Assembly (NCBI GenBank): GCA_012729015.1
Contig: JAAYDY010000105.1
Location: 35,296-99,295, forward strand
From: Phycisphaerae bacterium
GTDB lineage: Bacteria; Planctomycetota; Phycisphaerae; FEN-1346; JAACEH01
Length of the DNA: 64,000 bases
Direction: 5' to 3'
Both the position numbers and the translations under genes were made by a program. The notes beneath the pieces were generated by a model. That model was not told where the DNA came from. It ran no database searches and was given only the letters and a program-made list of their open reading frames with translations. Below, in pieces: positions 1,434 through 59,499 of this stretch (the stretch's first letter is position 1; each line of letters opens with the position of its first letter).

Positions 1434-1476
1434 CGTTCACCTTTCGCGGCGGGCCGGCGACCCGGCTCCGCCGGAC

Positions 1477-4481: not shown

Positions 4482-4486
4482 GACGG

Positions 4487-6048: not shown

Positions 6049-6050
6049 CG

Positions 6051-30594: not shown

Positions 30595-30610
30595 GTCAGA
30601 CCACTCCTCT

Positions 30611-37047: not shown

Positions 37048-37062
37048 AGTATGACTCCCGAC

Positions 37063-41104: not shown

Positions 41105-42916
41105 ATGAGCAAGTCACTCGAAGCAGACGTCAAGAAGATCTGCAAAGCCTGCGGCAACGACCGAACGAGGATGATGGACATCGTTCGATCCGTCCAGGAG
41201 CAATGCGGATGCGTTTCGGGCGAGGCGATGGACCTGATCGCCCGGGAGGTGTCGTGCCATCGGGTTGAGGTTGAGAGCGTGGTCTCGTTCTACGCCTTCC
41301 TCTCCACGCGGCCCAAAGGCAAGGTGGTCATCCGCCTGTGCGACGACGTAATCGACGAGATGAAGGGATCGGATCAGGTGGCGGCGGCGCTGAAGACCGA
41401 ACTGGGGATTGATTTCGGCGAGACGACGGCCGACGGCGCCATCACCCTCGAACACACGCCGTGCATCGGCATGTGCGATCAGGCGCCGGCGGCGATGGTG
41501 AATGACGAAGTGGTCACTTACCTGTCCGGGGATGCGGCGCGGAGCATGGTGCGGTCGCTCCGCGAGCACATGGATCCGAAGAAACTGGTCGGGCGTTTCG
41601 GCGACGGCAACAACGGCCACGATCTGGTGCGATCCATGGTGCATAACAACATCCGCCAGTCGGGCGAGGTGGTGCTGGCGCCGCTGGCGGAGGGGGCGGC
41701 ACTGAAGAACGCCCTGGCGATGAGTCCGGCGGAGGTGATTCGCGACGTGAAGACGGCGCGGCTTCGCGGCCGTGGCGGCGCAGGGTTTCCTACGGGAATG
41801 AAATGGGAGTTTACGCGGAACGCCCCCGGCACACAGAGATACGTGCTGTGCAACGCCGACGAGGGCGAGCCGGGCACGTTCAAGGACCGGGTCATTCTGA
41901 CCGAGCGTCCGGACGTGCTGATTGAGGGCATGACCATTGCCGGGTACGCCATTGGATCGGATACGGGCGTGCTCTACCTGAGGGCGGAATACGCCTATCT
42001 TCGTTCGTTCCTGGAGCAGGCGCTGCACGACCGCCGCAACAAGGGCCTGCTGGGCAAAGACATCTGCGGCAAGAAGGGTTTCAATTTCGACATCCGGATC
42101 CAGATGGGGGCCGGAGCGTACATTTGCGGCGAAGAAACGTCGCTGATCAGCAGCGTCGAAGGGTTGCGGGGCGACCCGAAGAATCGCCCCCCCTTCCCCG
42201 CCCAGAAGGGCCTGCATCAGTGCCCGACGACGGTCAACAACGTGGAGACGTTCTGCTGCGTGTCGCGGATCCTGGAGAAAGGCCCCGGCTGGTTCGCGCA
42301 GATGGGGTCGAAGGGGAGCCCCGGCACCAAGGTGCTGAGCATCTCCGGCGACTGCCATCGGCCTGGGGTCTACGAGGTGCCGTTCGGCATCAAGCTGAGC
42401 GACGTGCTGAAGCTCTGCGGCGCGGAGGATGCCGCCGCGGTGCAAGTGGGCGGCCCGAGCGGCACGATGGTGTCGCCGGCGGAGTTCGGGCGGACGATCT
42501 GCTACGACGATCTGGCCACGGGCGGCTCGGTCATGGTGTTCGGCCCGAAACGGAACCTGCTGAAGGTCGTGCGGAAATTCCTGGAGTTCTTCATCGAGGA
42601 GAGCTGTGGCTACTGCACCCCGTGTCGCGTCGGGAACGTGTTGCTGCTGGAACGGCTCAACCGGATTCTGGACGGCAGGGGCGAGCCTTCGGATCTGCCC
42701 TACCTGGAGCGTCTTGGCCAGACGATCAAGACGGCCGCCCGGTGTGGGCTCGGCCAGACGTCGCCCAACCCGGTGCTGACAACACTGAAGAGCTTCCGCT
42801 CGGCGTATGAGTCGCTGGTGAAGGAGGCTCCGGACGGCCTTCAGCCATCGTTCGACATAGGTGCGGCCCTGGGGGATGCGAAAACGATCACCGGGCGCGA
42901 GTCGGTCCACTTTTAG
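41105..42916 (+). CDS. hoxF: NAD(H)-linked [NiFe] hydrogenase diaphorase subunit HoxF (NuoE-like N-domain fused to NuoF-like core)
   Basis: GRGGAGFPTGMKWEF, CNADEGEPGTFKD, ESCGYCTPCR motifs. N-terminal thioredoxin-like domain. Confidence 0.85.
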   Translation: MSKSLEADVKKICKACGNDRTRMMDIVRSVQEQCGCVSGEAMDLIAREVSCHRVEVESVVSFYAFLSTRPKGKVVIRLCDDVIDEMKGSDQVAAALKTELGIDFGETTADGAITLEHTPCIGMCDQAPAAMVNDEVVTYLSGDAARSMVRSLREHMDPKKLVGRFGDGNNGHDLVRSMVHNNIRQSGEVVLAPLAEGAALKNALAMSPAEVIRDVKTARLRGRGGAGFPTGMKWEFTRNAPGTQRYVLCNADEGEPGTFKDRVILTERPDVLIEGMTIAGYAIGSDTGVLYLRAEYAYLRSFLEQALHDRRNKGLLGKDICGKKGFNFDIRIQMGAGAYICGEETSLISSVEGLRGDPKNRPPFPAQKGLHQCPTTVNNVETFCCVSRILEKGPGWFAQMGSKGSPGTKVLSISGDCHRPGVYEVPFGIKLSDVLKLCGAEDAAAVQVGGPSGTMVSPAEFGRTICYDDLATGGSVMVFGPKRNLLKVVRKFLEFFIEESCGYCTPCRVGNVLLLERLNRILDGRGEPSDLPYLERLGQTIKTAARCGLGQTSPNPVLTTLKSFRSAYESLVKEAPDGLQPSFDIGAALGDAKTITGRESVHF

Positions 42917-42940
42917 AGTCTGCTAAGGGGCGAACTGGCG

Positions 42941-43654
42941 ATGAGCGAAACGATCACGTTCACAATCGACGGTAAGGAAGTCAGTGCCCAGCCGGGCCAG
43001 ACGATCATGCAGGCCGCCGACGCCGCGGGCATCTACATTCCACGTTTGTGCGCCTTCGAAGGCCTCGTGCCGCACGGCAGTTGCCGCGTCTGCACGGTGA
43101 TGGTCAACGGGCGTGCGCAGGCGGCATGCACGCAGCCGGTGGCCGACGGCATCGTCGTCGAGAACGATACCGAGAAGCTGCTGGCGATTCGACGGGACAT
43201 CATCGAGATGCTCTTCGTCGAGGGCAACCACTACTGCATGTTCTGCGAGAAGAGCGGCAACTGCGAGCTTCAGGCGTTGGCGTACCGGTTCGGCATCGCC
43301 GCTCCGAAGTATCCGTACCTTTTCCCGAAGCGGGAGATCGACGCCACTCACCCGGACATTTTCATTGATCGCAACCGTTGCGTTCTGTGCGGCCGGTGCG
43401 TTCGGGCGTCACGCGACGTGGACGGCAAGGGCGTGTTCGAGTTTGTGGGTCGCGGCCCGCAGAAGCGTGTGGCCGTGAATGCGGAGGCGAACCTGGCCGA
43501 CACGGATCTGAAGACGAGCGACAAGGCCGTCGAGGTGTGCCCGGTCGGGGCCATTCTCAGGAAACGGGTAGGCTATGCCGTTCCGGTGGGCAGACGCCGG
43601 TACGACCACAAGCCGATCGGTTCGGACATTGAACAGGCTGCATCGAAGAAATAG
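42941..43654 (+). CDS. hoxU: HoxU diaphorase Fe-S subunit (NuoG N-terminal-like: 2Fe-2S plus 4Fe-4S)
   Basis: 2Fe-2S CxxC…C motif near the N-terminus. HxxxCxxC and CVLCGRCVRAS clusters. ATG preceded by AAGGGG. Confidence 0.85.
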   Translation: MSETITFTIDGKEVSAQPGQTIMQAADAAGIYIPRLCAFEGLVPHGSCRVCTVMVNGRAQAACTQPVADGIVVENDTEKLLAIRRDIIEMLFVEGNHYCMFCEKSGNCELQALAYRFGIAAPKYPYLFPKREIDATHPDIFIDRNRCVLCGRCVRASRDVDGKGVFEFVGRGPQKRVAVNAEANLADTDLKTSDKAVEVCPVGAILRKRVGYAVPVGRRRYDHKPIGSDIEQAASKK

Positions 43655-43667
43655 GGGCTATTGTCAC

Positions 43668-44213
43668 ATGGCAAAAGCGAAAGTTGCAACGACCTCGCTG
43701 TGCGGCTGTTTCGGTTGCCACATGTCCCTCCTGGACATCGACGACCGGATTCTGAAGCTCGTGGAGTTAGTGGATTTCAACAAGTCGCCGATCAACGACA
43801 TCAAGGAATTCACTGAGCGATGCACGGTGGGCCTGATCGAGGGCGGCTGCTGCAACGAGGAGAACGTCCGGGTGCTTCGCGACTTCCGCAAGCATTGCGA
43901 CATTCTGATCTCGGTGGGCGACTGTGCGACGATGGGCGGCATTCCGGCCATGCGGAACACTATCCCGCTCAAGGAGTGCCTCGACGAAGCGTATCTGAAC
44001 GGCCCGACCGTGCATAACCCGAGCGGACAGATACCGAACGATCCCGAGATCCCGCTGCTGCTGAATCGCGTCTACCCGTGCCATGAGGTGGTGAAGATCG
44101 ACTACCACCTGCCTGGGTGCCCGCCGTCGGCCGACACGCTGTGGGAGGCCCTGGTGGCCCTACTGACCGATAAGCCCGTCGCGCTGCCGTACGAGCTGAT
44201 CAAGTACGACTGA
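43668..44213 (+). CDS. hoxY: [NiFe] hydrogenase small subunit, group 3 (HoxY)
   Basis: CGCFGCH, GDCATMGG, PGCPP motifs of short group-3 small subunits. Start at MAKAKV (ATG 43668). Confidence 0.85.
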   Translation: MAKAKVATTSLCGCFGCHMSLLDIDDRILKLVELVDFNKSPINDIKEFTERCTVGLIEGGCCNEENVRVLRDFRKHCDILISVGDCATMGGIPAMRNTIPLKECLDEAYLNGPTVHNPSGQIPNDPEIPLLLNRVYPCHEVVKIDYHLPGCPPSADTLWEALVALLTDKPVALPYELIKYD

Positions 44214-44237
44214 TCCCATGTTTTTGGAGCCCAACAC

Positions 44238-45677
44238 GTGGCAAGCACAAAACAGAAGCGAGTGATCATCGAGCCCGTGACCCGAGTGGAGGGCCACGGC
44301 AAGGTCAGCATTCTGCTGGACGAGAAGAACACCGTGACGCAGGCTCGGCTGCACATCGTCGAGTTCCGCGGCTTCGAACGGTTCGTCCAGGGGCGGCCGT
44401 TCTGGGAAGTGCCTGTGCTGGTGCAGCGTCTGTGCGGCATCTGCCCGGTCAGCCACCACCTGGCCGCCGCAAAGGCCATGGACTGGATCGTCGGCGGGGA
44501 GAAGCTGACGCCGACGGCGGAGAAGATGCGACGGCTGATGCATTACGGCCAGACGTTCCAGAGCCACGCGCTGCACTTCTTCCACCTGGCCTCGCCCGAT
44601 CTCTTGTTCGGCTTCGACGCCGACGTGGCGATTCGCAATGTGATCGGCGTGGCGGCGAAGTACCCGGACCTGGCCGTCCAGGGCGTGATGATGCGGAAGT
44701 ACGGGCAGGAAATCATCAAGGCCACGGCCGGCAAAAAGATCCACGGCACGGGCGCCATCCCGGGCGGCATCAACAAGAACCTGTCAATCGCCGAGCGTGA
44801 CGTGTTCCTGAAGGACATCGACCAGATGCTCACGTGGTGCCGCGGCGCGCTGAAGGTGGCCGTGGACTACACCACGGCGAACCTGGCGACGGCGGCCCCG
44901 TTCGGATCGTTCGATTCGAATCACCTGTCGATCGTCCGCAAGGACGGCTCGATGGACCTGTACGACGGGAACCTGCGCGCCATCGACGCCCAGGGCAAGA
45001 AGATTCTGGACCAGGTCGCGCCGCAGGACTACTACAAAGTCATCGCCGAGGAAGTGCGACCGTGGTCGTACATGAAGTTCCCGTTCATCAAGAGCATCGG
45101 CCCGAAGGACGGCTGGTACCGGGTGGGCCCGCTGGCCCGCATCAATACATGCGACTTCATCGACACGCCCGAAGCCGAGGCCGCCCGCAAGGAGTTCATG
45201 AAGCTGACCGACGGCAAGCCCAACAACATCACGATGGCTTACCATTGGGCGCGGATGATCGAGCTGCTGCACTCGGGCGAGAAGATTCGCGATCTCCTGA
45301 ACGACAAGGATCTCCAGGGCACCGACCTGGTGACCAAGGGGGATCGTCGGGACGAGGGTATTGCCATTGTCGAGGCGCCGCGCGGGACGCTGTTCCATCA
45401 TTACCGCGTGAACAAGGACGACCAGGTGGTCATGGCGAACCTGATCGTCTCGACGACGAGCAACAACGAGCCGATGAACCGGGCGGTCCAGAAGGTGGCC
45501 CAGGATCACATTTCCGGCAAGCCGGAGATCACCGAAGGGCTGCTGAATCACATTGAGGTGGCCATCCGGGCCTACGACCCGTGCCTGTCGTGTGCGACGC
45601 ACGCCCTGGGGCGGATGCCGCTCGAGGTGATCCTGGTCGACAGCACAGGAACCGTGATCGACCGGAAGCGCAAGTGA
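44238..45677 (+). CDS. hoxH: [NiFe] hydrogenase large subunit, group 3d (HoxH)
   Basis: L1 RLCGICPVSHH. C-terminal DPCLSCATH followed by a protease-cleaved extension. GTG start with GGAG upstream. Confidence 0.9.
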   Translation: MASTKQKRVIIEPVTRVEGHGKVSILLDEKNTVTQARLHIVEFRGFERFVQGRPFWEVPVLVQRLCGICPVSHHLAAAKAMDWIVGGEKLTPTAEKMRRLMHYGQTFQSHALHFFHLASPDLLFGFDADVAIRNVIGVAAKYPDLAVQGVMMRKYGQEIIKATAGKKIHGTGAIPGGINKNLSIAERDVFLKDIDQMLTWCRGALKVAVDYTTANLATAAPFGSFDSNHLSIVRKDGSMDLYDGNLRAIDAQGKKILDQVAPQDYYKVIAEEVRPWSYMKFPFIKSIGPKDGWYRVGPLARINTCDFIDTPEAEAARKEFMKLTDGKPNNITMAYHWARMIELLHSGEKIRDLLNDKDLQGTDLVTKGDRRDEGIAIVEAPRGTLFHHYRVNKDDQVVMANLIVSTTSNNEPMNRAVQKVAQDHISGKPEITEGLLNHIEVAIRAYDPCLSCATHALGRMPLEVILVDSTGTVIDRKRK

Positions 45678-46203: not shown

Positions 46204-46581
46204 ATGCGCGACGGCAAGTACGTGATCCTCTGCATCGATGACGACGACGATATCCTGCTGGTGCTGAAGACGGTCCTCGAGGCGAATGGCTATGTGTTCG
46301 CCGGGGCCTCCAGCGCCGAACAGGGACTGAAGAAGCACGAGGAGGTGTCGCCGGACCTGATCATTGTGGACCTGATGATGGAGGAGATCGATGCCGGGAC
46401 GAGCTTCGTGCGTGAGCTGAAGGCACGCGGCTGCAAGGCGCCGATCTACATGCTGAGCAGCGTCGGCGACGACCTGAACCGCTCGATCGACTACTCGGCC
46501 CTGGGACTGTCGGGCGTGTTCCAGAAGCCGATCGAGAACGACAAGCTTCTGGCTTTGCTGAAGACGAAGCTGAAGAAGTAG
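46204..46581 (+). CDS. Single-domain CheY-like response regulator
   Basis: ILCIDDDDD…DLIIVDLMMEEIDAG receiver. Paralogous to the regulator at 32839..33228. Confidence 0.8.
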   Translation: MRDGKYVILCIDDDDDILLVLKTVLEANGYVFAGASSAEQGLKKHEEVSPDLIIVDLMMEEIDAGTSFVRELKARGCKAPIYMLSSVGDDLNRSIDYSALGLSGVFQKPIENDKLLALLKTKLKK

Positions 46582-48773: not shown

Positions 48774-49757
48774 ATGGCGAGGCGGAAGAGCGTATCGGGG
48801 CGGAGAGAGGCGACGGCAGATACGCCTTGCGTCGCCGCGCCATTGGCTGCGGTTCTTGTGTTGGCGTGTCTTGTCGCCGCATCGTGTCAGGACACTCCGC
48901 CTTCTCCGCATACCAAGGACACGCCGCCACCGCCCGCGGCGTTGGCGACTGGGAATGGGGAACGGCCCTGTTCGGCCGACCCGGCGGCGTATCGGTGGCT
49001 GGGCTCATTCCACCAGGCGGACATCCTGGCCAACCGCATCGCTCCCCCCGATGGCTTCATGAGGCAACAGTCACCGCCGGAGAGCTTCGGCTATTGGCTC
49101 CAGCGCCTTCCACTGAAGCCGGGGCTTCCCGCCGTCCGCCTGCACGACGGGCGGGCGGCATCGAACCAGGAGGCCCACGCGGCGGTCATCGACATCGATG
49201 TCGGCACCGGAGACCTGCAACAATGCGCAGACGCGGTGATTCGGCTCCGTGGCGAGTACCTTTATGCCATGGGCATGGGCCAGCAGGTGTCGTTCGACTT
49301 CACAAGCGGGGACGAGGCGAGTTTCCGGCAATGGTCTCGCGGCTTTCGCCCAACGGTGCACGGCAACAGGGTACAGTGGACGCGATCGACGGCGGCCGAC
49401 GACTCCTATGCCGCGTTCAGGCAGTACCTGCGGACCGTGTTCACCTACGCGGGCACAATGTCTCTCCGCAGGCAATTGACACCGGTGGCAGACCCTTCGC
49501 AGGTGCAGATCGGCGACGTCTTCATCCAAGGAGGTTCTCCGGGCCATGCCGTGATCGTGGTTGACGTCGCGATACACCCTGAGACGCAGCACAGGGTGTT
49601 CCTGCTGGCACAAAGCTATATGCCGGCCCAGGATGTGCATGTTCTGAAGAACCCGCACGACGGCTGGCTGAGTCCGTGGTACTCAGCCGACATGGGTTCG
49701 GGGCTTCATACGCCACAGTGGGAGTTCGCAAGGACCGACCTCCGGCGTTTCCCGTGA
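48774..49757 (+). CDS. Hypothetical lipoprotein
   Basis: Signal peptide with lipobox LVAASC. ATG preceded by GGAGAAG. No recognisable catalytic motif. Confidence 0.45.
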   Translation: MARRKSVSGRREATADTPCVAAPLAAVLVLACLVAASCQDTPPSPHTKDTPPPPAALATGNGERPCSADPAAYRWLGSFHQADILANRIAPPDGFMRQQSPPESFGYWLQRLPLKPGLPAVRLHDGRAASNQEAHAAVIDIDVGTGDLQQCADAVIRLRGEYLYAMGMGQQVSFDFTSGDEASFRQWSRGFRPTVHGNRVQWTRSTAADDSYAAFRQYLRTVFTYAGTMSLRRQLTPVADPSQVQIGDVFIQGGSPGHAVIVVDVAIHPETQHRVFLLAQSYMPAQDVHVLKNPHDGWLSPWYSADMGSGLHTPQWEFARTDLRRFP

Positions 49758-50015
49758 GCCAGCGACGGCTTTATGGGAAGGGACCGCTGGACGCACGCCA
49801 CACACCCGGGTCGCAATCGAAGCCCGGTGTGACACGCATCACCCACCTTGGCCTGGCGGCGGTGTATCCTCTGGATTCATTGTCCGGTTGCTGCTGTCGG
49901 TTGATTAGCGGCGCTGGGAGGTCTATAATTCGCACCAGTGACGAGGCGCCACGCACGTGCCCGCTCATGAGGCGGCATCACACGCGGTGCGTATGACGGG
50001 GACTCGGACAACGCG

Positions 50016-52121
50016 ATGGCCGTGTGGGGCCATCCTCTACGAGGTCAGACGGTGGACGAACTGACGTCAGGCGAATTGAAGCGACTCGGTGACAGCCGCA
50101 TGCTGATGCAGCGGGAGTGGTCGCCGTGCAGATACCATTGCCCGGTGCATGCGGACGTGCGGTCGTACATCGAGTTGGCCGCGCGGGGTCGGTGGCGTGA
50201 GGCCATCGACGTGATCCGCGAACGTCTGCCATTTGCGTCCGTGTGCGGGCGCGTGTGCCATCATCCGTGCGAGGCCAACTGCCGTCGCGCGGGCGTGGAC
50301 GAAGCCGTGGCGATCCGCGAGGTGAAGCGGTTCGTGAGCGAGCAACAGGGCGCCTCGGGAGCAACGGTACGCCGCGTGGTACAGGACAAGGCGCCGGTGG
50401 CGATCGTCGGCGCAGGTCCTGCCGGCATGGCCGCGGCGCTCGATCTGGCGCTTCTGGGATATCGGCCGACGGTGTTTGAGAAGTTCGCCGTCGCAGGGGG
50501 CATACCGGCCACGGCCATTCCTCCGTATCGCCTGCCGCGCGACGTTCTTCAGCAGGACATCGACTGGATCTGCGCCCACGGGGTGACTGTGGTCACGGGC
50601 GTTGAGATCGGCAAGGACAAGACGCTCGCGGACCTGAAGAGCGAGGGCTTTGCAGCCATCGTGATTGCCACGGGCCTAGCGCTTTCGCGAACGTTGCCCA
50701 TTCCGGGCGCGAACCACGAGCGAGTCTATCCCGTGCTGGATTTCCTGACGGCGGTGTGCTCAGACAGGGCGCCCCGGATCGGCTCGGACGTCGTGGTGAT
50801 CGGCGGCGGCAACGTGGCGATGGACGCAGCGCGGACAGCGGTGCGGCTGGGTGCGACTCGCGTGCGGGCGATGTGCCTTGAGGCCGAGGACGAGATGCCG
50901 GCGTGGGACTGGGAGCGCAGCGAGGCGGCCGAGGAAGGCGTCGGGTTCATCCATCGCCGCGGACCGACCGATATCGTGATTCGCGACGGGCGGATCGTTG
51001 CGGTTGCGGCGCGGAAGGTCACTCGCGTGTTCGATGCCGACCACCGATTCGATCCGCGTTACGACGACGCCGATGTCGTGAGCGTGGAGTGCGACACGGT
51101 GATCATGGCGATCGGGCAGACGGCGGACATGGGATTTCTCGCCGGGAGCCCTCTGGCCAAGGATACCCGCGGACGCCTGACGTACGATTCGGCCACGCAC
51201 CAGACCAGCGATCCGTCAATCTTTGCGTGCGGCGAAATCGTAACCGCGCCGGGATCGGTTGTTGAGGCCTGCGCGTCGGGTCAGCGTGCGGCGAAGGGCG
51301 TGGACCTGTTCCTGAGCGGCAAGCCGATCCGGCTTGCCGACGCGCTGCCTCCGGTGATTGGCGAGATGGCCCCCGACACCGCGGCCAAGGTATCGAAGTC
51401 GCCGCGAAACGCTGTCCTGCAACGCGCAGCGGACGAACGCCGGCGCGATAGTCTGCCCATTGACGCGAACTTCACGGCGGATGCGGCCATGCACGAGGCA
51501 CAGCGCTGCATGGGGTGCGGCGGAGGCGCCGAGGTTCTGATCGACAAGTGCGCCGCGTGCCTGACGTGCCTCCGCGTGTGCCCGTTCGACATTCCGGTGG
51601 TGACGGACGTGGCGCGGATCGAGTCCTCGCTCTGCCAGGCGTGCGGTATGTGCATCGTTGAGTGCCCGGCCAACGCCATCGTGTCGCGAAGCTGGGACAC
51701 GCGGGAGGAGATCGGAAACACGGCCGCGCGGCTGGCCGGCGCGGGTGCCGGGCCGAAGGTGGTGGCCTACATCAACGGGTACCATGCCCCCGCGGCCGCA
51801 TGGGGCGCGTCGGCAGAGGATGCCTTGCCCGGCGTGCTGGAGGTCTGGCTGCCAAGCGTGAGCCGCCTGGGCGTGGCCGAGATGCTTCGCGCCATCGAGA
51901 ACGGGGCGGACGGGATCGTGGTGGTGGCGGGCTACCTGGGCGGCGACCGTTACCCCACGGTGCGCGAACGCATGGCTCGCCGCGTCGAACAGCTCCGGGC
52001 GATGCTGGGCGAAATCGGCATGAACCCCGAGCGTATTCAGCTGGTCCACTGTGCGGACGAGGGACGCGACGCGATGCGCCGGGCCATCGTCGAAGCAACG
52101 GGGAAGATTGCGGCATGTTGA
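50016..52121 (+). CDS. GltD/NfnB-like NAD(P)H flavin oxidoreductase fused to 2x[4Fe-4S] ferredoxin and a cysteine-less MvhD-like domain
   Basis: N-terminal Cys clusters (CRYHCPVHADV, CGRVCHHPCEANC). Two Rossmann GxGxxG motifs (VAIVGAGPAG, VVVIGGGNVA). CAACLTCLRVCP and CQACGMCIVECP. C-terminal region aligns to MvhD/FlpD but FCCNWC, MCSGR and GCHxGDCHY are replaced by YINGYH, LPSVSR and GYLGGDRY. Confidence 0.75.
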   Translation: MAVWGHPLRGQTVDELTSGELKRLGDSRMLMQREWSPCRYHCPVHADVRSYIELAARGRWREAIDVIRERLPFASVCGRVCHHPCEANCRRAGVDEAVAIREVKRFVSEQQGASGATVRRVVQDKAPVAIVGAGPAGMAAALDLALLGYRPTVFEKFAVAGGIPATAIPPYRLPRDVLQQDIDWICAHGVTVVTGVEIGKDKTLADLKSEGFAAIVIATGLALSRTLPIPGANHERVYPVLDFLTAVCSDRAPRIGSDVVVIGGGNVAMDAARTAVRLGATRVRAMCLEAEDEMPAWDWERSEAAEEGVGFIHRRGPTDIVIRDGRIVAVAARKVTRVFDADHRFDPRYDDADVVSVECDTVIMAIGQTADMGFLAGSPLAKDTRGRLTYDSATHQTSDPSIFACGEIVTAPGSVVEACASGQRAAKGVDLFLSGKPIRLADALPPVIGEMAPDTAAKVSKSPRNAVLQRAADERRRDSLPIDANFTADAAMHEAQRCMGCGGGAEVLIDKCAACLTCLRVCPFDIPVVTDVARIESSLCQACGMCIVECPANAIVSRSWDTREEIGNTAARLAGAGAGPKVVAYINGYHAPAAAWGASAEDALPGVLEVWLPSVSRLGVAEMLRAIENGADGIVVVAGYLGGDRYPTVRERMARRVEQLRAMLGEIGMNPERIQLVHCADEGRDAMRRAIVEATGKIAAC

Positions 52122-52170
52122 GACCGCGGACGTGCGGACGTCGGGCGCGCTGCGGCGGGAGAAGGCGTCA

Positions 52171-52860
52171 ATGATCGTAGCTGAACGCAAACCCATGGAC
52201 GAGATCGTCGCCATGCTGGCGCCGCACCGGAAGGTGCTGGTGCTGGGTTGCGGCGGGTGCGTGACGGTCTGCCTGACCGGCGGGGAGAAGCAGGCCGAGC
52301 TCCTGGCCGGGCAACTGCGACTGGCGGCGCGGCAGGCCGGCCGGACGCTGGAGGCCGCCTTTGACTGCATCACGCGACAGTGCGAGCGAGAGTTCTTCGA
52401 CAATCTCACGGAGGATCCTCGCACCTACGACGCCGTGCTCAGCATCGCCTGCGGCGCCGGCGTGCAGTACATGAGCGAACTGTACCCCGAGGTGCCGATT
52501 CTGCCGGGGATGAACACAACGTTTCTCGCCTCGAACGTGGCCGGCGGCGTCTGGGAGGAGTACTGTCGCGGCTGCGGCGACTGCGTGCTGGCGTGGACGG
52601 GCGGCATCTGCCCGATCACGCAATGCTCCAAGAGCCTGATCAACGGAACGTGCGGCGGCACGAACAACGGCAAGTGCGAGGTCAACCCGGAGATGGAGTG
52701 CGGGTGGCTGAGGATTTACGAACGGCTGAAGGCGCTCGGCCAACTGGACAACTACCGGACGCTTCGGGCGGCTCGCGACCATCGCAAGGACCGCGGCGGC
52801 GGCGTGAGGCGGCTTGTGCTCAAGGACATGGCCGAGAGCCAGGAGAGCGGCAATGAGTGA
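52171..52860 (+). CDS. metV: MetV-like Cys-rich small subunit of methylene-THF reductase (MTHFR C-terminal-like domain)
   Basis: Cys-rich motifs (LGCGGCVTVC, CRGCGDCV, GGICPITQC, CGGTNNGKCE). ATG 52171 preceded by GGGAGAAGG. Stop overlaps metF. Confidence 0.7.
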   Translation: MIVAERKPMDEIVAMLAPHRKVLVLGCGGCVTVCLTGGEKQAELLAGQLRLAARQAGRTLEAAFDCITRQCEREFFDNLTEDPRTYDAVLSIACGAGVQYMSELYPEVPILPGMNTTFLASNVAGGVWEEYCRGCGDCVLAWTGGICPITQCSKSLINGTCGGTNNGKCEVNPEMECGWLRIYERLKALGQLDNYRTLRAARDHRKDRGGGVRRLVLKDMAESQESGNE

Positions 52861-53761
52861 GCCCGTCAGCAAACTGGAGTCGGCCCTTCGTGCGGGCACA
52901 TTCGTTTTCACGGGCGAGATCGGCCCGCCGAAGGGCACGCATATCGAGCCTGTGATTCACGAGGCGGTCGCCAGCCTGAAAGGGCGATGCGCGGCGGTGA
53001 ACGTGACGGACATTCAGACGGCCGTCATGCGTGCCTCGTCCGTGGCCGGATGCAAGCTGCTGCTGGACGCAGGGGTGGAACCGGTGCTCCAGATGGTGTG
53101 CCGCGACCGCAACCGCCTGGCTCTCCAGAGCGACTTGCTCGGAGCACATATCCTGGGGATTCGCAATGTGCTGGCCCTGACCGGCGACCACACGACGCTG
53201 GGCGACCATCCGCAGTCCATGCCCGTGTACGATCTGGATTCGGTCGGCCTGCTTGAAGCCATCGTGCGCCTGGAGTCGGGCACGGACATGGGCCGGGACA
53301 TGAAAGGGAACCCCAATCAACTGGACGGATCGCCGCGGTTCTTCAAGGGGTGCTGCGTTACACCGTGCGCGGAGGTGGTGGACCCGCAGATCATCAAGCT
53401 CGAAAAGAAGGTGGCCGCGGGAGCGCAGTTCGTTCAGACGCAGGCAGTGTACGATCCGGCCGCCTTCGAGGCGTTCATGCGCAATGTGGAGTCGCTGAAG
53501 GTGCCGGTGCTGGTCGGCATTGTCATGTTGAAATCGGCGGCCATGGCGAAGTACATGAACCGGTCGGTGCCGGGCGTGGTGGTTCCCGAGTGGATCATCA
53601 CCCGACTGACCGAGGCGTCGAAGGAGGATCGGCAGAAGGTGTCGATCGAGATCTGCGGGCAACTGATCCGCCAGATGAAAAGCTGCTGCCAGGGGGCGCA
53701 CCTGATGACGCTGGGTTGGGACCACTGCGTTCCGGAGATCATCGCCGCGGCCGAGGCGTAA
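52853..53761 (+). CDS. metF: 5,10-methylenetetrahydrofolate reductase
   Basis: Full-length MetF TIM-barrel similarity (…FVFTGEIGPPKG…, LALTGDH, VGIVMLKS). ATG 52853 preceded by AGGAGA. Confidence 0.85.
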   Translation: MSEPVSKLESALRAGTFVFTGEIGPPKGTHIEPVIHEAVASLKGRCAAVNVTDIQTAVMRASSVAGCKLLLDAGVEPVLQMVCRDRNRLALQSDLLGAHILGIRNVLALTGDHTTLGDHPQSMPVYDLDSVGLLEAIVRLESGTDMGRDMKGNPNQLDGSPRFFKGCCVTPCAEVVDPQIIKLEKKVAAGAQFVQTQAVYDPAAFEAFMRNVESLKVPVLVGIVMLKSAAMAKYMNRSVPGVVVPEWIITRLTEASKEDRQKVSIEICGQLIRQMKSCCQGAHLMTLGWDHCVPEIIAAAEA

Positions 53762-53819
53762 GGAGTACGGCGCGTCCGGTGCGACGCGGGCCAGTGCGGG
53801 AACACACCAAGGAGATGCC

Positions 53820-54188
53820 ATGATCCAGACGGAAGCCGTGATCCGCTACCTCGACGAGACACCTGCGACGGACTGTCCGTATGGCAACGTCCGCCGCGTG
53901 GTGACTGGCGGCCTGGGGGGCGTGGCCAACGTGCATGTGGTCACGGTCACGGCAGGAAACGCGCACGTCCACACGGGGTACGACGAGACATACTACGTTC
54001 TGGCCGGTACAGGCACCATCACCCTGGCCGGGCGCAGCCATGCGCTGCGTCCGGGCGCGGTGGTCGTGATTCCTCGCGGCACCGGGCACGCGATTCAGGC
54101 GGACACGGGAAAGGCGCTCGAGTTTGTGATCTTCGGGACGCCGGCCATGGGCGCCGACGATGAGCGTTTCATGCCCCGCAAGCCGTGA
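53820..54188 (+). CDS. Cupin-domain protein
   Basis: HxH…H cupin motifs (NVHVVT…HVHTGYDETYYVL…GHAIQ). ATG preceded by AAGGAG. Confidence 0.6.
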   Translation: MIQTEAVIRYLDETPATDCPYGNVRRVVTGGLGGVANVHVVTVTAGNAHVHTGYDETYYVLAGTGTITLAGRSHALRPGAVVVIPRGTGHAIQADTGKALEFVIFGTPAMGADDERFMPRKP

Positions 54189-54195
54189 TCGGGAA

Positions 54196-55482
54196 TCACA
54201 CTCCCAGCACATCCGCATAGATCCGCAGAGTCGTCTCGGCCATCGTCCGCGAAGAGAAGTGCGTTTCGACGCCACGCGCCGCCGCGACGGACATATCGGT
54301 GAGACGGCGGCGGTCATCCGCCAGAGACACCAGGGCCGCCGCCAGCGATTCGGCACCGCAGGGGTCCACAAGCATCCCGCCTCCGGTTGATTCGACGATT
54401 TCCGCCAGGATGCCATTGCGAGGGGCAACCAGCACGGCGCCGCAGGCCATTGCCTCCAGCGCCGCCACGGCCCGGCGTTCCGGCTGCCGGCTCGGACGCA
54501 CAAACACGTCGAGGCTCTGAAACAGGTCGAGTTTCCCGCCGAACGTCACCTGTCCGCGGAAGGCGAAACCGTCGCGGTTCTGTTGCAGACCGGTCTCGTC
54601 CAGCACGGATTGCCACCAGCGACGGTCTGCCGGGGCGAGCTGTCCGGCGACGCTCAACCGCACCTGCCCCGGGCGCTCTCGATGGACGATGGCCGCCGCG
54701 CGGCACAGGATGTCCAGCCCCTTGGCCGGCGCAATGCGCGACAGGTATCCCACGTGGACTGGCCCACCTTCGCTGCGCACAGCCGGTCGGAACACGCCGA
54801 CATCGACGCCCGGGTGGACCACGCGAATGCGGTCTCGACCGACACCAAGAAACTCCGCGACTTCGTCGGCATAGCCGGCGGCCGGTGCGATGAACAGATC
54901 AATGTCCTCGGCGGCCAGGCGCACGAGGGCCATGGCTTCATCGCGAAAAGGCGGAGGCAGATCGCGAACGAACGCCTCCTCACCCTGGACCATGCAGACG
55001 ATCCGGCAGCCAAGCCGCTCGCGAATAGCGGGCGCCAGGCCGGCCAGCAGCGAGTTCGTCAGGTTCACGACGTCGGGACTCCCCTGCCCGTGCAGGTAAT
55101 CGAGCAACGCGCGAAGTTCCTTCGCCTGGCGGCCCTGGCTGCCGCGCAGCACGGAGACGGTCATCGCCCCCAGGTCCTCGGGCTGCGTGTCGATGGCCAA
55201 TCGGGAGACTGCCCGCAGGATCCACCGGCTGTCGAACAGCCTGTCGAGAAGTTTGGGCGTGTGTCGGAAGAGGGCGAACTTCTGCTGGAGCACGGCACTG
55301 ATGCCGCCGTAGAACACGCGACGGTCGCTGGGATCGGGCCCGTCAAGCCTCAGGGGCGTGTACAGAGGAAGCATCGTCACCTCGTGGCCGAGCGCGATGA
55401 GGCTGCGGGCCAGTGCGGCATCGCGGGCGCATGCGCCGCAATACTGCCCTGCCGCCCCGGCTGCGAGGTAGACAATCTTCAT
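54196..55482 (-). CDS. Glycosyltransferase family 4 (GT-B fold)
   Basis: Conserved GT4 C-terminal EX7E-type region (…ALEAMACGAVLVAPRNGILAEIVE…) and N-terminal donor-binding domain. Confidence 0.8.
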   Translation of the reverse strand: MKIVYLAAGAAGQYCGACARDAALARSLIALGHEVTMLPLYTPLRLDGPDPSDRRVFYGGISAVLQQKFALFRHTPKLLDRLFDSRWILRAVSRLAIDTQPEDLGAMTVSVLRGSQGRQAKELRALLDYLHGQGSPDVVNLTNSLLAGLAPAIRERLGCRIVCMVQGEEAFVRDLPPPFRDEAMALVRLAAEDIDLFIAPAAGYADEVAEFLGVGRDRIRVVHPGVDVGVFRPAVRSEGGPVHVGYLSRIAPAKGLDILCRAAAIVHRERPGQVRLSVAGQLAPADRRWWQSVLDETGLQQNRDGFAFRGQVTFGGKLDLFQSLDVFVRPSRQPERRAVAALEAMACGAVLVAPRNGILAEIVESTGGGMLVDPCGAESLAAALVSLADDRRRLTDMSVAAARGVETHFSSRTMAETTLRIYADVLGV

Positions 55483-55489
55483 GCCCGAC

Positions 55490-57145
55490 TCAGCCTCCGC
55501 TGTCTCGCAGGGCTCGCTTCAGGCTCAGGGCTCCGGTCGGACAATGCTCGACACATCGTCGCGCCGTGCGACGAAGCGCCTCGCTCAACTCCGACGAGAA
55601 CGGCGCCGCCGTGCGAACGCTGAAGCCGCGACCGATGAACGTGAGGCCGAGCGTTTCTCGATCCTGTTCGGCGATGCGCACGCACCGACCGCATTGGATG
55701 CACTTGCCCGACTCAAACACGATGTCAGGATGGGTGGCGTCGCGCTCGAAGGGCCGGCGAGGACCATGGTACCGCGTCGGCGACGCACCGTACCGAGCGG
55801 CCAATTGACGCAACGCACACGTATCGCGTTTGCCGCAGTCGCAATCGAGGCAGCGTCCGGCCTCAGCACGGACCTCTGTGTCGCTGGCCGTCGCGGCGGC
55901 CGCTGGATTGCCGGAATCGGGCATGCCCCGGGGACTAGGGTCGGCATGGGCACGCAGCACCGCTACCTCGTCGCCGCTGAGATCGCGCATGAGCACGTTG
56001 ACATGCGCGGGGTCTCCGACAACGTCCGCGCCTCGGAGAAACTGGTCCACGGCAACGGCGGCGCGGCGGCCGCTCGCCACGGCGTGAACGCCGTAATTCG
56101 GGCCGGTCACCACATTCCCGGCGGCAAAGACACCGGCGCGGCCCGTAGCCAGCGTCGCACGGTCCGCCTGCACACCTCGGCGTGAGGGCTGGAGGCCCAG
56201 GGCGTTGAGCAGCGAGAAGTCGTACCGCACCTCGCCGCCGGCCAGGCGTCCCTCGGCATAGAAGGCCGCCTGGTCCATCGCGGTCTGGGTGCCGATGGCT
56301 AGGACGACGGCATTGTGGCGAGCGAGAAGGTCGTCCAGGCTGACATCTCGCCCGAGGCGAACGCCGGATCGCAGCTGCACGCCGAGGCCCAGAATCGCAG
56401 CAATTTCGGCGTCAAGCACGTCGCGCGGCAGCCGCCGGGCGTCGATGCCGCAGCGATACAGCCCACCGGCCTGTGGCTGCGCCTCGTACAGCGTGCAGGC
56501 GTGACCCATCTGTCGGAGGTAGTATGCGGCAGAAAGGCCCGCAGGCCCGGCGCCGACCACGGCGACGCTCTTGCCCGACTCGGTCGCACCATCGGGCCTG
56601 TGTGGATCGCTGGAAGCGAGATCCTTGTCGGCCACCCAGCGGTGCAGGTCGCGAATGTTGACGGCTTCGTCCAGTTCCTTGCGCCGACATGCTCGCTCGC
56701 AGAATCGTGGACACACGCGGCCCAGGGATGCCGGCAGGGGAAGCCGCCGCCTGACGATGCCGGCTGCGCGGCGGTTGTCACCGGCCACGATGGCAGCGAC
56801 GAAGTCGGCCACCTTGAGGTGGGCGGGGCACGCCAAAGAGCATGGGGCTACGCAGTCGCCCGGGTGGTCACTGAGAAGAAGTTCCAGAGCGGTACGACGG
56901 GCTCGCATCACGACGTCGGACTGCGTCCGCACCACCATCCCCTCGGCCACAGGCATGGCGCACGACGGTTTCAGACCGGCCTGCCCTTCGATTTCGACAA
57001 CGCACATGAAGCAGGACGTGTGCGGCTGGAGACCGTCGAGGTGACACAACGTGGGAATGTCGATGCCGAGGCGGCGCGCGGCTTCGAGAACGGTCGTCCC
57101 CGGAGGCACATCTATGCTGCGATTGTCGATGGTCAGTCTCGGCAC
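55490..57145 (-). CDS. HydA-N-terminal-like Fe-S domain (2Fe-2S plus His-ligated 4Fe-4S) fused to NfnB/GltD-like NADPH-FAD oxidoreductase (StnC-like)
   Basis: N-terminal plant-type 2Fe-2S (CHLDGLQPHTSCFMCVV), HPGDCVAPCSLACP, CPRFCERAC. GxGxxG (VAVVGAGPAGL). C-terminal CIQCGRCV cluster. No H-cluster motifs. GTG start overlaps the upstream stop. Confidence 0.75.
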   Translation of the reverse strand: MPRLTIDNRSIDVPPGTTVLEAARRLGIDIPTLCHLDGLQPHTSCFMCVVEIEGQAGLKPSCAMPVAEGMVVRTQSDVVMRARRTALELLLSDHPGDCVAPCSLACPAHLKVADFVAAIVAGDNRRAAGIVRRRLPLPASLGRVCPRFCERACRRKELDEAVNIRDLHRWVADKDLASSDPHRPDGATESGKSVAVVGAGPAGLSAAYYLRQMGHACTLYEAQPQAGGLYRCGIDARRLPRDVLDAEIAAILGLGVQLRSGVRLGRDVSLDDLLARHNAVVLAIGTQTAMDQAAFYAEGRLAGGEVRYDFSLLNALGLQPSRRGVQADRATLATGRAGVFAAGNVVTGPNYGVHAVASGRRAAVAVDQFLRGADVVGDPAHVNVLMRDLSGDEVAVLRAHADPSPRGMPDSGNPAAAATASDTEVRAEAGRCLDCDCGKRDTCALRQLAARYGASPTRYHGPRRPFERDATHPDIVFESGKCIQCGRCVRIAEQDRETLGLTFIGRGFSVRTAAPFSSELSEALRRTARRCVEHCPTGALSLKRALRDSGG

Positions 57146-57151
57146 CGCGGT

Positions 57152-58993
57152 TCACTCCACCACAATGGCGTCTGCCGGGCATCCGGCCTTGCACATGCCG
57201 CAACGGATACACTTCTCGGCGTCGATTGTGTGCTGCTCGTAAGGTGTCGGTTGAATGGCCTGGACCGGGCATCGCTGGGCACAGCGCGTGCAGCCGATGC
57301 ACGTGTCCGTGACACGATAGGCAATAAGGGCTTTGCATTTGCGTGCCGGGCAGCGGCCCTGGAGATGGGCCTCGTACTCGTCGCGGAAGTAGCGCAGCGT
57401 CGTCAGCACCGGATTCGGCGCCGTCCGCCCCAGCCCGCAGAGGCTGGTGTGTCGCACCTGGTCGCACAGCATCTCCAGATCGTCCAGATCCTCGGGGTGC
57501 CCCTTGCCATCGCACAGCCGCTCGAGGATGTCAAGCATGCGCCGCGTGCCAACGCGGCAGAACGTACACTTGCCGCAGGACTCCTTCTCGGTGAACTCGA
57601 GGAAGAACCGGGCGATGTCCACCATGCAGTCTGAATCATCGAGCACGACAAGGCCGCCGGACCCCATGATGGCGCCAGTGCGGGTGAGCGCCTCGTAGTC
57701 GATAGGCAGGTCGGCCATGGAGGCCGGAATGCAGCCACCCGAAGGCCCGCCGATCTGGACGGCCTTGAAGCGACGTCCCTCGTGCATGCCGCCGCCGATG
57801 TTCTCGACCACGTCGCGAATCGTCGTGCCCATAGGAACTTCGATGAGGCCGCCCCGCCGGATGCGGCCGGCCAGGGCGAACACCTTGGTTCCTTTGCTGC
57901 GCTCGGTGCCGATGGCCGCAAAGGCGGCGGACCCATGGCGCACGATCCACGGCACACAGGCGAACGTCTCGACGTTGTTGACGCTCGTGGGCTTGCCCCA
58001 CAGGCCGCTCTCGGCGGGATAGGGCGGACGGAATCGCGGCATGCCGCGGCGGCCCATGATGGAGGCCATCAGGGCTGTCTCCTCGCCACAGACAAACGCC
58101 CCGGCCCCTTCCATGACATGGAGCCGCAGCGAGAACCCCGTCCCAAGAATACCCTGTCCAAGGTATCCGGCCCGCTCGGCCTGGGCGATCGCCTCGCGGA
58201 GCACTCGGACGGCCAGCGGGTACTCGGCGCGAATGTAGATGTAACCTTCAGCGGCGCCGATAGCGTAGGCGGCAATGGCCATGCCCTCGATGACCCGTTG
58301 CGGGTCGCTTTCGAGGACGAGCCGGTCCATGAACGCTCCGGGGTCGCCCTCGTCGGCGTTGCAGACGACGTAGCGCGTCGAGTCCTGCTGACTCCGGGCG
58401 GTGGCCCACTTCAGGCCGGTCGGATACCCGCCGCCACCGCGGCCGCGCAAGCCGGACTGGGTGACGGCGTCGATCACCTGCTGCGGCGTCATGTCGGCAA
58501 CGCACCGCCGCAGGGCCGCATACCCTCCGCGGGCCAGGTACTCGTCGATACACAGCGGGTCGATCTGGCCGCAGTTCTCGAGGACGATGAGTTTCTGTTC
58601 GCCGGCTTGTCCGGCTTCCGTCGCGGACTCTGGATGGGCCGCAAATGGCTTGACCGACACCCACGCCTCGTCCGACAGCAGCAGGTCCGCCATGCGGCCC
58701 GCCCAGGCCATGGCTTTGCCCACCATGCCCCTGGGCGTCACGCAGTCGCGCACGATGCGGCGCGCCTCGGCCGGCCTCACGCCGCCGAACACTTGGCGAC
58801 GGCCGTCCGTGGAAACCACTTCGACGATGGGCTCCTGGTGGCACAGGCCGCTGCATCCGACGGCCTTCACCGGAACGTGCAGACCATGGCGACGGGCGGC
58901 CTCATGCACGGCTTCATGCACCGGCCGTCCGCCGCTGGCGATGCCGCAGGTGGCCAGGCCGACACGAATCTCCTTGACGTTGTGATCGCTCAT
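57152..58993 (-). CDS. NuoF-like NADH-binding flavoprotein subunit (second copy)
   Basis: GRGGGGYPTGLKW, CNADEGDPGAF, ESCGKCTFCR. N-terminal thioredoxin-like 2Fe-2S and C-terminal 2x[4Fe-4S]. Confidence 0.85.
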   Translation of the reverse strand: MSDHNVKEIRVGLATCGIASGGRPVHEAVHEAARRHGLHVPVKAVGCSGLCHQEPIVEVVSTDGRRQVFGGVRPAEARRIVRDCVTPRGMVGKAMAWAGRMADLLLSDEAWVSVKPFAAHPESATEAGQAGEQKLIVLENCGQIDPLCIDEYLARGGYAALRRCVADMTPQQVIDAVTQSGLRGRGGGGYPTGLKWATARSQQDSTRYVVCNADEGDPGAFMDRLVLESDPQRVIEGMAIAAYAIGAAEGYIYIRAEYPLAVRVLREAIAQAERAGYLGQGILGTGFSLRLHVMEGAGAFVCGEETALMASIMGRRGMPRFRPPYPAESGLWGKPTSVNNVETFACVPWIVRHGSAAFAAIGTERSKGTKVFALAGRIRRGGLIEVPMGTTIRDVVENIGGGMHEGRRFKAVQIGGPSGGCIPASMADLPIDYEALTRTGAIMGSGGLVVLDDSDCMVDIARFFLEFTEKESCGKCTFCRVGTRRMLDILERLCDGKGHPEDLDDLEMLCDQVRHTSLCGLGRTAPNPVLTTLRYFRDEYEAHLQGRCPARKCKALIAYRVTDTCIGCTRCAQRCPVQAIQPTPYEQHTIDAEKCIRCGMCKAGCPADAIVVE

Positions 58994-59499
58994 CGGCCCG
59001 ACTCCTTCCGCACCTTGTCGATGATCATGGTGGCCTTGTGCGGCGTGAGCTTGCCGTAGGTCACATCGTCAATCGTCATGCACGGCGCCAGCGAGCAGCA
59101 GCCGAGGCAAGGGACCTTCTCGATGGTGAAGAGCCGGTCGGCGTCGGTGTCTTCGTGGTCGTCGTCGATGCCCAGGTGGCGGCGGAGCGCCTCGGTAATC
59201 AGCGGTGCCCCGGCCACGTGACAGGCGGTGCCGTGACAGACGCGAACCATGTGCCGGCCGACAGGCTTGTGACGGAACTGGCTATAAAACGTCGAGACGC
59301 CGGCGATCTGAGCCGCCGTAATCTCCGTCGTACGGCAGACGTGCTCCAGGGCCTCTTGCGGCAGATATCGGAAATGCGACTGAATCGCCTGAAGAATCGG
59401 TATCGCTGCGTCGGCGGTCGTCCCCGTCCGGCGCACAATATTGTCCACCGCCGCCAGGTCGATCGGCTCGTCCACGGGTTGTCGTTTCGCCTTGGTCAT
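58990..59499 (-). CDS. NuoE-like 2Fe-2S subunit (second copy)
   Basis: VCHGTACHVAG…CLGCCSLAP thioredoxin-like ferredoxin. 4-nt overlap with the downstream NuoF-like gene. Confidence 0.85.
   Translation of the reverse strand: MTKAKRQPVDEPIDLAAVDNIVRRTGTTADAAIPILQAIQSHFRYLPQEALEHVCRTTEITAAQIAGVSTFYSQFRHKPVGRHMVRVCHGTACHVAGAPLITEALRRHLGIDDDHEDTDADRLFTIEKVPCLGCCSLAPCMTIDDVTYGKLTPHKATMIIDKVRKESGR

Follow-up and report, generated by a model that had tools for sequence, protein, structure and literature searches.

Four types of methylene-tetrahydrofolate (methylene-THF) reductase (MTHFR) have been described: MetF alone (type I), MetVF (type II), RnfC2-MetVF (type III) and HdrCBA-MvhD-MetVF (type IV) (PMC8760232). 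The electron donor and the energy conservation of the MetVF-type enzymes are still debated (PMC8760232, PMC9430772). In the type IV enzyme of Moorella thermoacetica, HdrA oxidizes NADH and includes a GltD domain in which sites for FAD and NAD(P)H are present, and the residues characteristic of bifurcating flavins are found in its TrxR-like domains; in pull-downs performed with Sporomusa ovata, MvhD bound MetF and MetV bound HdrA (PMC9430772). The analysis reported here concerns the metV-metF pair of a Phycisphaerae bacterium together with the flavoprotein gene located directly upstream, termed X hereafter, at positions 50016-53761 of a 64,000-nucleotide stretch of contig JAAYDY010000105.1 (the window).

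X combines in a single chain a GltD/NfnB-type flavin module, a ferredoxin domain and an MvhD/FlpD-like domain from which all the canonical cysteines have been lost. The domain content, the cysteine loss, the synteny, the module homology and the nucleotide-site motif, which are all shown here, lead us to infer complex formation, NADH use, a particular electron path and the absence of bifurcation: X, MetV and MetF would constitute one soluble complex, most likely a non-bifurcating NADH:methylene-THF oxidoreductase of a trimmed type IV design. We favor this reading with a confidence slightly better than even. Judging from the loci described below, the layout of a GltD-ferredoxin-MvhD fusion followed by MetVF is widespread across bacterial phyla. 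Such a fusion beside metVF appears undescribed in the full-text literature accessible without subscription, where only types I-IV are found (PMC8760232), which agrees with the novel MTHFR architecture proposed in the first-pass annotation of this DNA.

Modules of the flavoprotein X

Pfam recognizes in X a Fer4_20 region (aa 36-112), a Pyr_redox_2 domain (128-422), two Fer4 motifs (510-555) and a FlpD/MvhD domain (596-699). The NfnB/GltD-like flavoprotein with two Rossmann motifs, N-terminal cysteine clusters and a 2x[4Fe-4S] ferredoxin domain, which had been recognized by the first-pass annotation from the letters alone, is thus present in all its parts, and the domains Pyr_redox_2, Fer4, FlpD, MTHFR_C and MTHFR were all found in the three proteins of the locus. 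Sixteen invariant cysteines fit four [4Fe-4S] clusters, eight of them being of the GltD type (six N-terminal ones plus C498/C501) and eight belonging to the ferredoxin domain (C512/515/518/522 and C540/543/546/550). The C498/C501 pair lies C-terminal of the flavin domain in X, StnA (8oh5_C) and 9bov_A, whereas it is N-terminal in NfnB. Clear matches were obtained with the NfnB chains 4ylf_B (E 3.5e-60) and 5jca_L (E 4.4e-57). No NCBIfam model is passed by X, the best one being PRK12771 'NAD(P)-binding protein' (408 bits vs a cutoff of 516), and its C-terminal ~190 residues (505-691) match positions 572-761 of the 777 of the HdrA2 model NF040770 (E 2.5e-22).

The first Rossmann motif of X fits FAD. 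The second one ends with C-L-E, where Thermotoga maritima NfnB (TmNfnB), StnA, 9bov_A and 9n5u_A display Y-R-R, and this 'CLE' (occasionally 'MLE') is common to all X-like and HdrL-type sequences with a readable motif. Owing to the acidic residue in C-L-E and to the homology with the NADH-oxidizing HdrA of Moorella, NADH is predicted as the nucleotide in preference to NADPH, which narrows the NAD(P)H initially annotated.

The C-terminal alignment with MvhD/FlpD, also claimed at first reading, was borne out by several approaches. Residues 596-699 match the Pfam FlpD/MvhD family (PF02662) with 48.3 bits (cutoff 22.3, E 1.3e-12), and a phmmer search with the last 140 residues of X returned meaningful scores for MvhD chains alone (5odc_D, 9sfi_K, 8rvu_F, 7bkb_F). 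The AlphaFold2 (AF2) model of the domain, produced from a 28-sequence alignment, is confident (pLDDT 86.9, pTM 0.83). When it was compared to the PDB using Foldseek, the strong matches were MvhD chains only (5odc_D with E 4.5e-8 and TM 0.78, then 8rvu_F and 7bkb_F), and lumazine synthases came next with E > 1e-3. The AF2 model of full-length X is poor (pLDDT 64.9, with values <50 for the Fe-S regions and residues 440-560) and was used neither for fold search nor for packing.

The cysteine positions of this domain were compared with those of the solved chains 5odc_D and 9sfi_K and of the type IV MvhD of Neomoorella stamsii. None of the six canonical cysteines is retained in the window protein, their positions being occupied by I586, N587, H590, S616, G639 and D644: FCCxxC is changed to YINGYH (C to I, C to N, C to H), MPCSG to LPSVS (C to S) and GCxxGDCHY to AGYLGGDRY (C to G, C to D, and H to Arg645). 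The replacement of every cluster-binding motif had been correctly seen in the first-pass annotation, with the register of the last motif off by one residue. A cluster held by other cysteines of the domain was considered and rejected, as its sole cysteines, C679 and C701, are unconserved (Cys in 3% and 11%, respectively, of 121 aligned sequences comprising the window protein and 120 relatives). Across the X family, the MPCSG cysteine is nearly always replaced, mostly by Ser, and the final cysteine is always Asp or Glu within the invariant [DE]-R-Y-P; cysteines at 587 and 639, absent from the window protein, are kept in ~70% of the members. With a mean column identity of 55% across the family, the domain is well conserved and therefore under selection, not decaying. 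The term 'vestigial' applied to it earlier overstates the decay.

When 1.84 billion cluster representatives (one for each cluster at 50% identity) were searched with a profile, 1363 matches to the MvhD family were obtained, only 11 of them with E < 1e-30. The acidic replacement is found in about 24 of the top 150 representatives, the others keeping the three cysteines of the second domain half, and cysteine depletion also occurs in all the Planctomycetota loci and in one Desulfobia metagenome-assembled genome (MAG). A loss peculiar to this genome can therefore be rejected, since it defines a clade. Four to six cysteines are kept in canonical MvhD and in most X-like relatives outside the Planctomycetota clade. 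Because most cysteines of the domain are retained by the trio outside Planctomycetota, the depleted state is, from this distribution, derived and confined to one Planctomycetota-centred clade.

Comparison with described enzymes and distribution of the trio

The core of the locus belongs to the MetVF type (types II-IV), metF being immediately preceded by a Cys-rich metV to which it is coupled; the catalytic activity of this core is predicted. MetF obtains 227 bits against the MTHFR half of PRK08645, only 74 bits against TIGR00676 (cutoff 293.7) and only about 33 bits against Thermus MetF. As judged by such scores, it is of the acetogen type and remote from the MetF of E. coli and Thermus.

In Moorellaceae and in many Desulfobacterales loci, the genes upstream of metVF encode an HdrA of 1400-1500 aa and, separately, a Cys-rich MvhD, with hdrC and hdrB also upstream in N. 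stamsii. Residues 26-522 of X align to N. stamsii HdrA 152-643 (39% identity over 504 aa, 343 bits), residues 503-570 to the C-terminal ferredoxin domain of the same protein (1411-1482) and residues 580-676 to MvhD 6-104. Since these alignments are colinear, X can be described as the NADH-input and MvhD-side parts of type IV fused in one chain, homologous to the Moorella-type enzyme and distinct from the RnfC-type input of Acetobacterium. The precedent invoked by the first-pass annotation, namely the recruitment of HdrABC-MvhD modules by MetFV, is accordingly a sound one: the three modules of X are homologous, in the same order, to Moorella-type HdrA/MvhD parts (PMC9430772). The locus shares with the type IV enzymes of M. 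thermoacetica and S. ovata the MetV-MetF core, the GltD-type NADH/FAD/[4Fe-4S] module with 'CLE', and the HdrA C-terminal ferredoxin domain followed, in that order and immediately upstream of metV, by the MvhD fold (PMC9430772). It differs from them by the lack of HdrB, HdrC and the TrxR-like HdrA cores, by a single Pyr_redox_2 domain in a chain of 701 aa vs 1488 aa for HdrA, and by an MvhD part that is fused to the flavoprotein and devoid of any [2Fe-2S] cysteine. An ordinary type IV cluster with its Hdr genes nearby was rejected by tblastn, as HdrB, HdrC and the HdrA core (residues 650-1410) of N. stamsii have no match in the window; none of the three appears in the gene lists of the related loci L001-L003, HdrB and HdrC being present in the N. 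stamsii control.

A separate observation was made on the unfused mvhD genes. In L039, L042, L044, L049 and other Desulfobacterales, the mvhD open reading frame (ORF) located between hdrA and metV starts at an internal Met ('MRLSYPS...') and is devoid of the N-terminal CCxxC. These truncated ORFs may reflect an in-frame TGA encoding selenocysteine. The solved chain 9sfi_K displays an unknown residue 'X' at the equivalent position.

Type III (RnfC2-MetVF of Acetobacterium woodii) offers the best functional analogy, with three subunits and a dedicated NADH-oxidizing flavo-Fe-S input in a non-bifurcating, soluble enzyme (PMC8760232). The input subunit is however RnfC/NuoF-like with FMN, whereas X is GltD-like with FAD and carries ferredoxin and MvhD-like domains. 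Pfam detects no RnfC or Complex1_51K domain in X, and the Complex1_51K proteins of the window sit in other gene clusters. With NfnB, GltD and SudA (T. maritima NfnB 4ylf_B, Pyrococcus furiosus NfnI 5jca_L, GltD 2vdc_G), X has in common Fer4_20, Pyr_redox_2 and two [4Fe-4S] clusters beside FAD, and it is distinguished by the permuted first cysteine pair, by 'CLE' instead of the NADPH-binding 'YRR' and by the addition of a ferredoxin and an MvhD-like domain. No gene for an NfnA/PyrK-type partner or for GltB lies near X, and the former is likewise missing beside X in L001-L003; a classical NfnAB or GltBD was rejected for lack of an NfnA/GltB partner and of YRR, and because of the permuted first pair. 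The HdrA2 of Methanosarcina acetivorans (NF040770) likewise has its ferredoxin domain fused to MvhD, but it is built on an HdrA flavin core, works with HdrB2C2 and contains a [2Fe-2S] centre (PMC5861303), where X has a GltD module and lost cysteines. As for MvhD/FlpD themselves (5odc_D, 7bkb_F, 8rvu_F), the fold is shared over the whole domain, with 0/6 conserved cysteines in X and [DE]-R-Y-P in place of D-C-H-Y.

More than 120 protein clusters (90% identity grouping) are 57-100% identical to X, with a length of ~690 aa and a PF02662 domain in all cases; in their sources they are labelled Phycisphaerae or Planctomycetota 'FAD-dependent oxidoreductase'. The X-metV-metF trio is present in 16 of 16 Planctomycetota loci, three on metagenome or MAG contigs (L001-L003) and 13 in species representatives, always on the same strand and with an X-to-metV gap of about 0 to 281 nt. 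The flanks of the trio differ among these loci, FolD and FTHFS adjoining it in two of the three contigs L001-L003, and in L001 the called metV start directly follows the X stop codon. The same ~690-aa architecture followed by metV-metF was found in eight loci of other lineages with 36-44% identity, namely a Syntrophobacterales MAG (L019), a Syntrophobacter MAG (L022), a MAG labelled Deltaproteobacteria (L020), Ca. Aquicultor of the Actinomycetota (L023), Ca. Hebobacterum of the Armatimonadota (L026) and further MAGs (L027, L032, L072), so that an architecture exclusive to Planctomycetota was rejected. Four or five cysteines of the MvhD-like domain are kept in seven of these eight loci, L072 being the exception. 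The same-strand adjacency in the 16 Planctomycetota and eight other loci supports the functional link between X and MetVF that was put forward in the first-pass annotation.

In a neighbor-joining (NJ) tree of the GltD modules, which has no bootstrap support, contains one reconstructed outgroup and is to be taken as a rough guide only, all the X-like proteins are grouped except that of L072. The cysteine-depleted clade of Planctomycetota and Desulfobia is sister to the cysteine-retaining X-like proteins, and X and the GltD modules of Moorella-type HdrA fall within one subfamily, far from TmNfnB.

Two further observations were made on the relatives. Full-length GltD-ferredoxin-MvhD fusions with intact MvhD cysteines occur in 13 loci (L017, L018, L021, L024, L025, L028-L030, L033, L034, L036, L038 and L040) from Nitrospirota and Bacillota (Syntrophomonadaceae, Dethiobacteria) MAGs, with housekeeping neighbors (PPDK, primase, sigma factor) and no metVF within 5 kb. 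The alignment of MetV from L019, L020, L022, L065, L069 and L072 with the window MetV begins only near residue 65; going by these alignments, the N-terminal cysteine-containing part of MetV is missing or highly divergent in those lineages.

Proposed electron path and alternative explanations

In the favored reading, NADH would be oxidized at the GltD-type FAD of X and the electrons would pass through four [4Fe-4S] clusters of X, first the GltD-type pair and then the pair in the ferredoxin domain, to the MetV clusters and finally to the MetF flavin, where methylene-THF would be reduced. In canonical Hdr complexes the [2Fe-2S] cluster of MvhD is within electron-transfer distance of an HdrA [4Fe-4S] cluster (PMC5861303). 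As this relay is gone in the Planctomycetota clade and the domain is kept, the MvhD-like domain may serve there as a structural or docking element holding the ferredoxin domain against MetV/MetF, with direct electron transfer from the ferredoxin domain to MetV. A non-bifurcating, type III-like reaction is taken as the default because HdrBC and the TrxR-like HdrA domains are absent. Several points weigh against this scheme. The NADH prediction is drawn from one motif and from homology to the Moorella enzyme, and the full-length AF2 model is too poor for domain packing. The [2Fe-2S] cluster of the cysteine-retaining relatives presumably lies on the electron path, and its loss would require neighboring clusters near enough to bridge the gap. 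Finally, X-like genes of Bacillota and Nitrospirota adjoin unrelated genes (PPDK, primase, radical SAM), as does that of the Desulfobia MAG, so that the association of the module with MetVF is not universal.

The GltD/NfnB-type FAD is also the bifurcating flavin of NfnAB (PMC5861303), and an electron-bifurcating MTHFR has to be weighed on that account. The FAD of X would split the NADH electron pair, MetVF taking the part played by NfnA in NfnAB; one electron would run downhill through MetV/MetF to methylene-THF (about -200 mV) and the other uphill through a [4Fe-4S] pair to ferredoxin. X belongs to the NfnB/GltD superfamily, whose member NfnB holds such a flavin (PMC5861303), and its two separate [4Fe-4S] pairs suffice for electrons to leave by two paths. 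Ferredoxin-linked enzymes abound in the window (a HydABC-type [FeFe] hydrogenase, a NuoEF/NfnB-like complex, a group-4 hydrogenase), and for acetogens the existence of a bifurcating MTHFR was postulated long ago (PMC8760232). On the other hand, the closest functional homolog, which is the GltD domain in the HdrA of Moorella, has been described as an NADH entry site, and the proposed bifurcating flavins of that enzyme are located in the TrxR-like domains that X does not possess (PMC9430772). GltD, with the same cluster set, is non-bifurcating, and X lacks the second flavin or [2Fe-2S] cluster that NfnA places beside the FAD. Bifurcation is on balance unlikely but deserves to be kept in mind. 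The minimal form of such an enzyme, which we consider improbable, would have no Hdr module: ferredoxin would be reduced with NADH at one NfnB-type FAD, in coupling with the exergonic reduction of methylene-THF. Were this reading true, the cysteine-less MvhD domain would be the mark of a rewired branch point, and the long-postulated bifurcating MTHFR would exist in its simplest form in several anaerobic phyla.

The occurrence of X-like genes without metVF nearby in Bacillota, Nitrospirota and the Desulfobia MAG could also mean that X is an independent NAD(P)H oxidoreductase (for example NADH:ferredoxin- or sulfide-dehydrogenase-like) and that MetVF is a type II, ferredoxin-dependent enzyme. The 49-nt gap, which reaches 281 nt in relatives, implies no translational coupling, and purified MetVF enzymes are active with reduced ferredoxin alone (PMC8760232). 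This explanation seems quite improbable in view of the adjacency maintained in 16/16 Planctomycetota loci with differing neighbors and in eight loci of other lineages at about 40% identity, of the metV start abutting the X stop in L001, of the counterpart that every X module has among MetVF-associated Moorella-type proteins, and of the absence of a terminator-like site between X and metVF. Equally improbable is a redox-relay function preserved in the MvhD-like domain by a metal centre with ligands other than cysteine, for which Asp644, His590 or Arg645 would be candidates. About 70% of the family keep two of the six cysteines (587 and 639), an acidic residue is found at the last cysteine position in all family members, often with a His at 589/590, and ligation of Fe-S clusters by Asp, Glu or His is known in other proteins, which counts in favor of such a centre. 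Nevertheless, 0/6 cysteines are left in the window protein and in the relatives nearest to it, and at 587 and 639 cysteine is freely exchanged for S, G, A or N within the clade, a pattern unexpected for ligands.

To our knowledge, the Hdr-type MTHFR complex has so far not been purified intact. X-MetVF reduces this enzyme to three genes, encoding the fused NADH-input parts, MetV and MetF, and occurs naturally either with the [2Fe-2S] ligands of MvhD or devoid of them. It could therefore provide a small expressible system for the role of the MvhD module, for the GltD-type flavin as an entry point vs a bifurcation site, and for nucleotide choice. Hundreds of proteins from Planctomycetota and other MAGs labelled only 'FAD-dependent oxidoreductase' would gain a more precise annotation, and an MTHFR step linked to NADH could be included when the metabolism of anaerobic Phycisphaerae is reconstructed.

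Gene boundaries and surroundings of the locus

The three ORFs of the 50016-53761 interval, all on the (+) strand, display a strong third-position G+C bias in a window with a G+C content of ~67%; the immediate neighbors of X are a DUF4846 gene upstream and metV downstream. The coordinates are collected in Table 1.

Table 1. Features of the X-metV-metF locus in window coordinates
Feature	Position	Strand	Remarks
Sigma-70-like promoter candidate, TTGATT-17-TATAAT	49901..49929	+	10/12 consensus match only
Flavoprotein X, predicted NADH-oxidizing electron-input subunit	50016..52121	+	701 aa from ATG 50016
GltD/NfnB-type Fe-S region (Fer4_20)	50121..50351	+	Invariant C38, C42, C77, C81, C85, C89
FAD and NAD(H) Rossmann domains (Pyr_redox_2)	50397..51281	+	Second strand end C-L-E, aa 287-289
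Permuted pair 'EAQRC498MGC501G', then 2x[4Fe-4S] ferredoxin domain	51495..51683	+	Homologous to HdrA C-terminal ferredoxin domain
MvhD/FlpD-like domain	51741..52118	+	0/6 canonical Cys; invariant [DE]-R-Y-P
Spacer X-metV	52122..52170	+	49 nt; purine-rich (GGGAGAAGG) ribosome-binding site before metV
metV, Cys-rich small subunit	52171..52860	+	229 aa; DUF5981/MTHFR_C (PF12225), E 3.5e-35
metF, MTHFR catalytic subunit (predicted)	52853..53761	+	302 aa; PF02219, E 1.6e-38

The spacing between X and metV is exactly the 49 nt stated in the first-pass annotation. The overlap of metV and metF is real and amounts to 8 nt (ATGAGTGA), metF starting at ATG 52853 and not at 52850. The 701-aa ORF of X exists as announced, but translation probably begins at GTG 50052, preceded 7 nt upstream by GAGG, which gives 689 aa, the length of an identical protein from a metagenome (P0001). 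The promoter candidate upstream of X is the sole promoter-like site within 49500-54300. No terminator-like site was detected in that interval, the X-metV-metF unit included, and no terminator-like hairpin in the spacer, so that the signals weakly favor a single transcription unit.

The window as a whole forms an island of genes for hydrogen and redox metabolism. No CODH/ACS, FTHFS or FolD gene was found within its 64 kb. On the (-) strand at 55490-59499, NuoE-like (169 aa) and NuoF-like (613 aa) genes adjoin that of a 551-aa protein, whose N-terminal [2Fe-2S]/NuoG-like part is accompanied by an NfnB-like Fer4_20 and FAD Rossmann insert. With no GGGNxAxD motif, this protein is apparently devoid of the second Rossmann subdomain, the one for NAD(P)H; it resembles the Stn/NfnABC (Bfu-type) transhydrogenases minus the formate-dehydrogenase-like domain. 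At 33294-39030 (-), a 680-aa putative sensory hydrogenase, in which an [FeFe]-hydrogenase H-cluster domain is fused to a HisKA/HATPase histidine kinase, adjoins HydA-like (573 aa) and HydB/NuoF-like (655 aa) genes, and a hybrid kinase/receiver gene is located at 31671-32834. A Hox-like soluble [NiFe] hydrogenase is encoded at 41105-45677 (+), with a NuoE-NuoF fusion of 603 aa, a HoxU-like protein of 237 aa, a small subunit of 212 aa and a large subunit of 479 aa; it is followed by a lone response regulator at 46204-46581. Genes of a group-4 membrane-bound [NiFe] hydrogenase or of an Mrp-like system lie at 660-8033 (-) and include an Oxidored_q6 protein with a 2x[4Fe-4S] extension, a Complex1_49kDa protein and two Proton_antipo_M proteins. 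Two radical-SAM genes at 29170-31813 (-), one with a BATS domain, resemble the [FeFe]-hydrogenase maturases HydG/HydE, and a fumarase/aspartase-family lyase is encoded beside them at 27738-29153.

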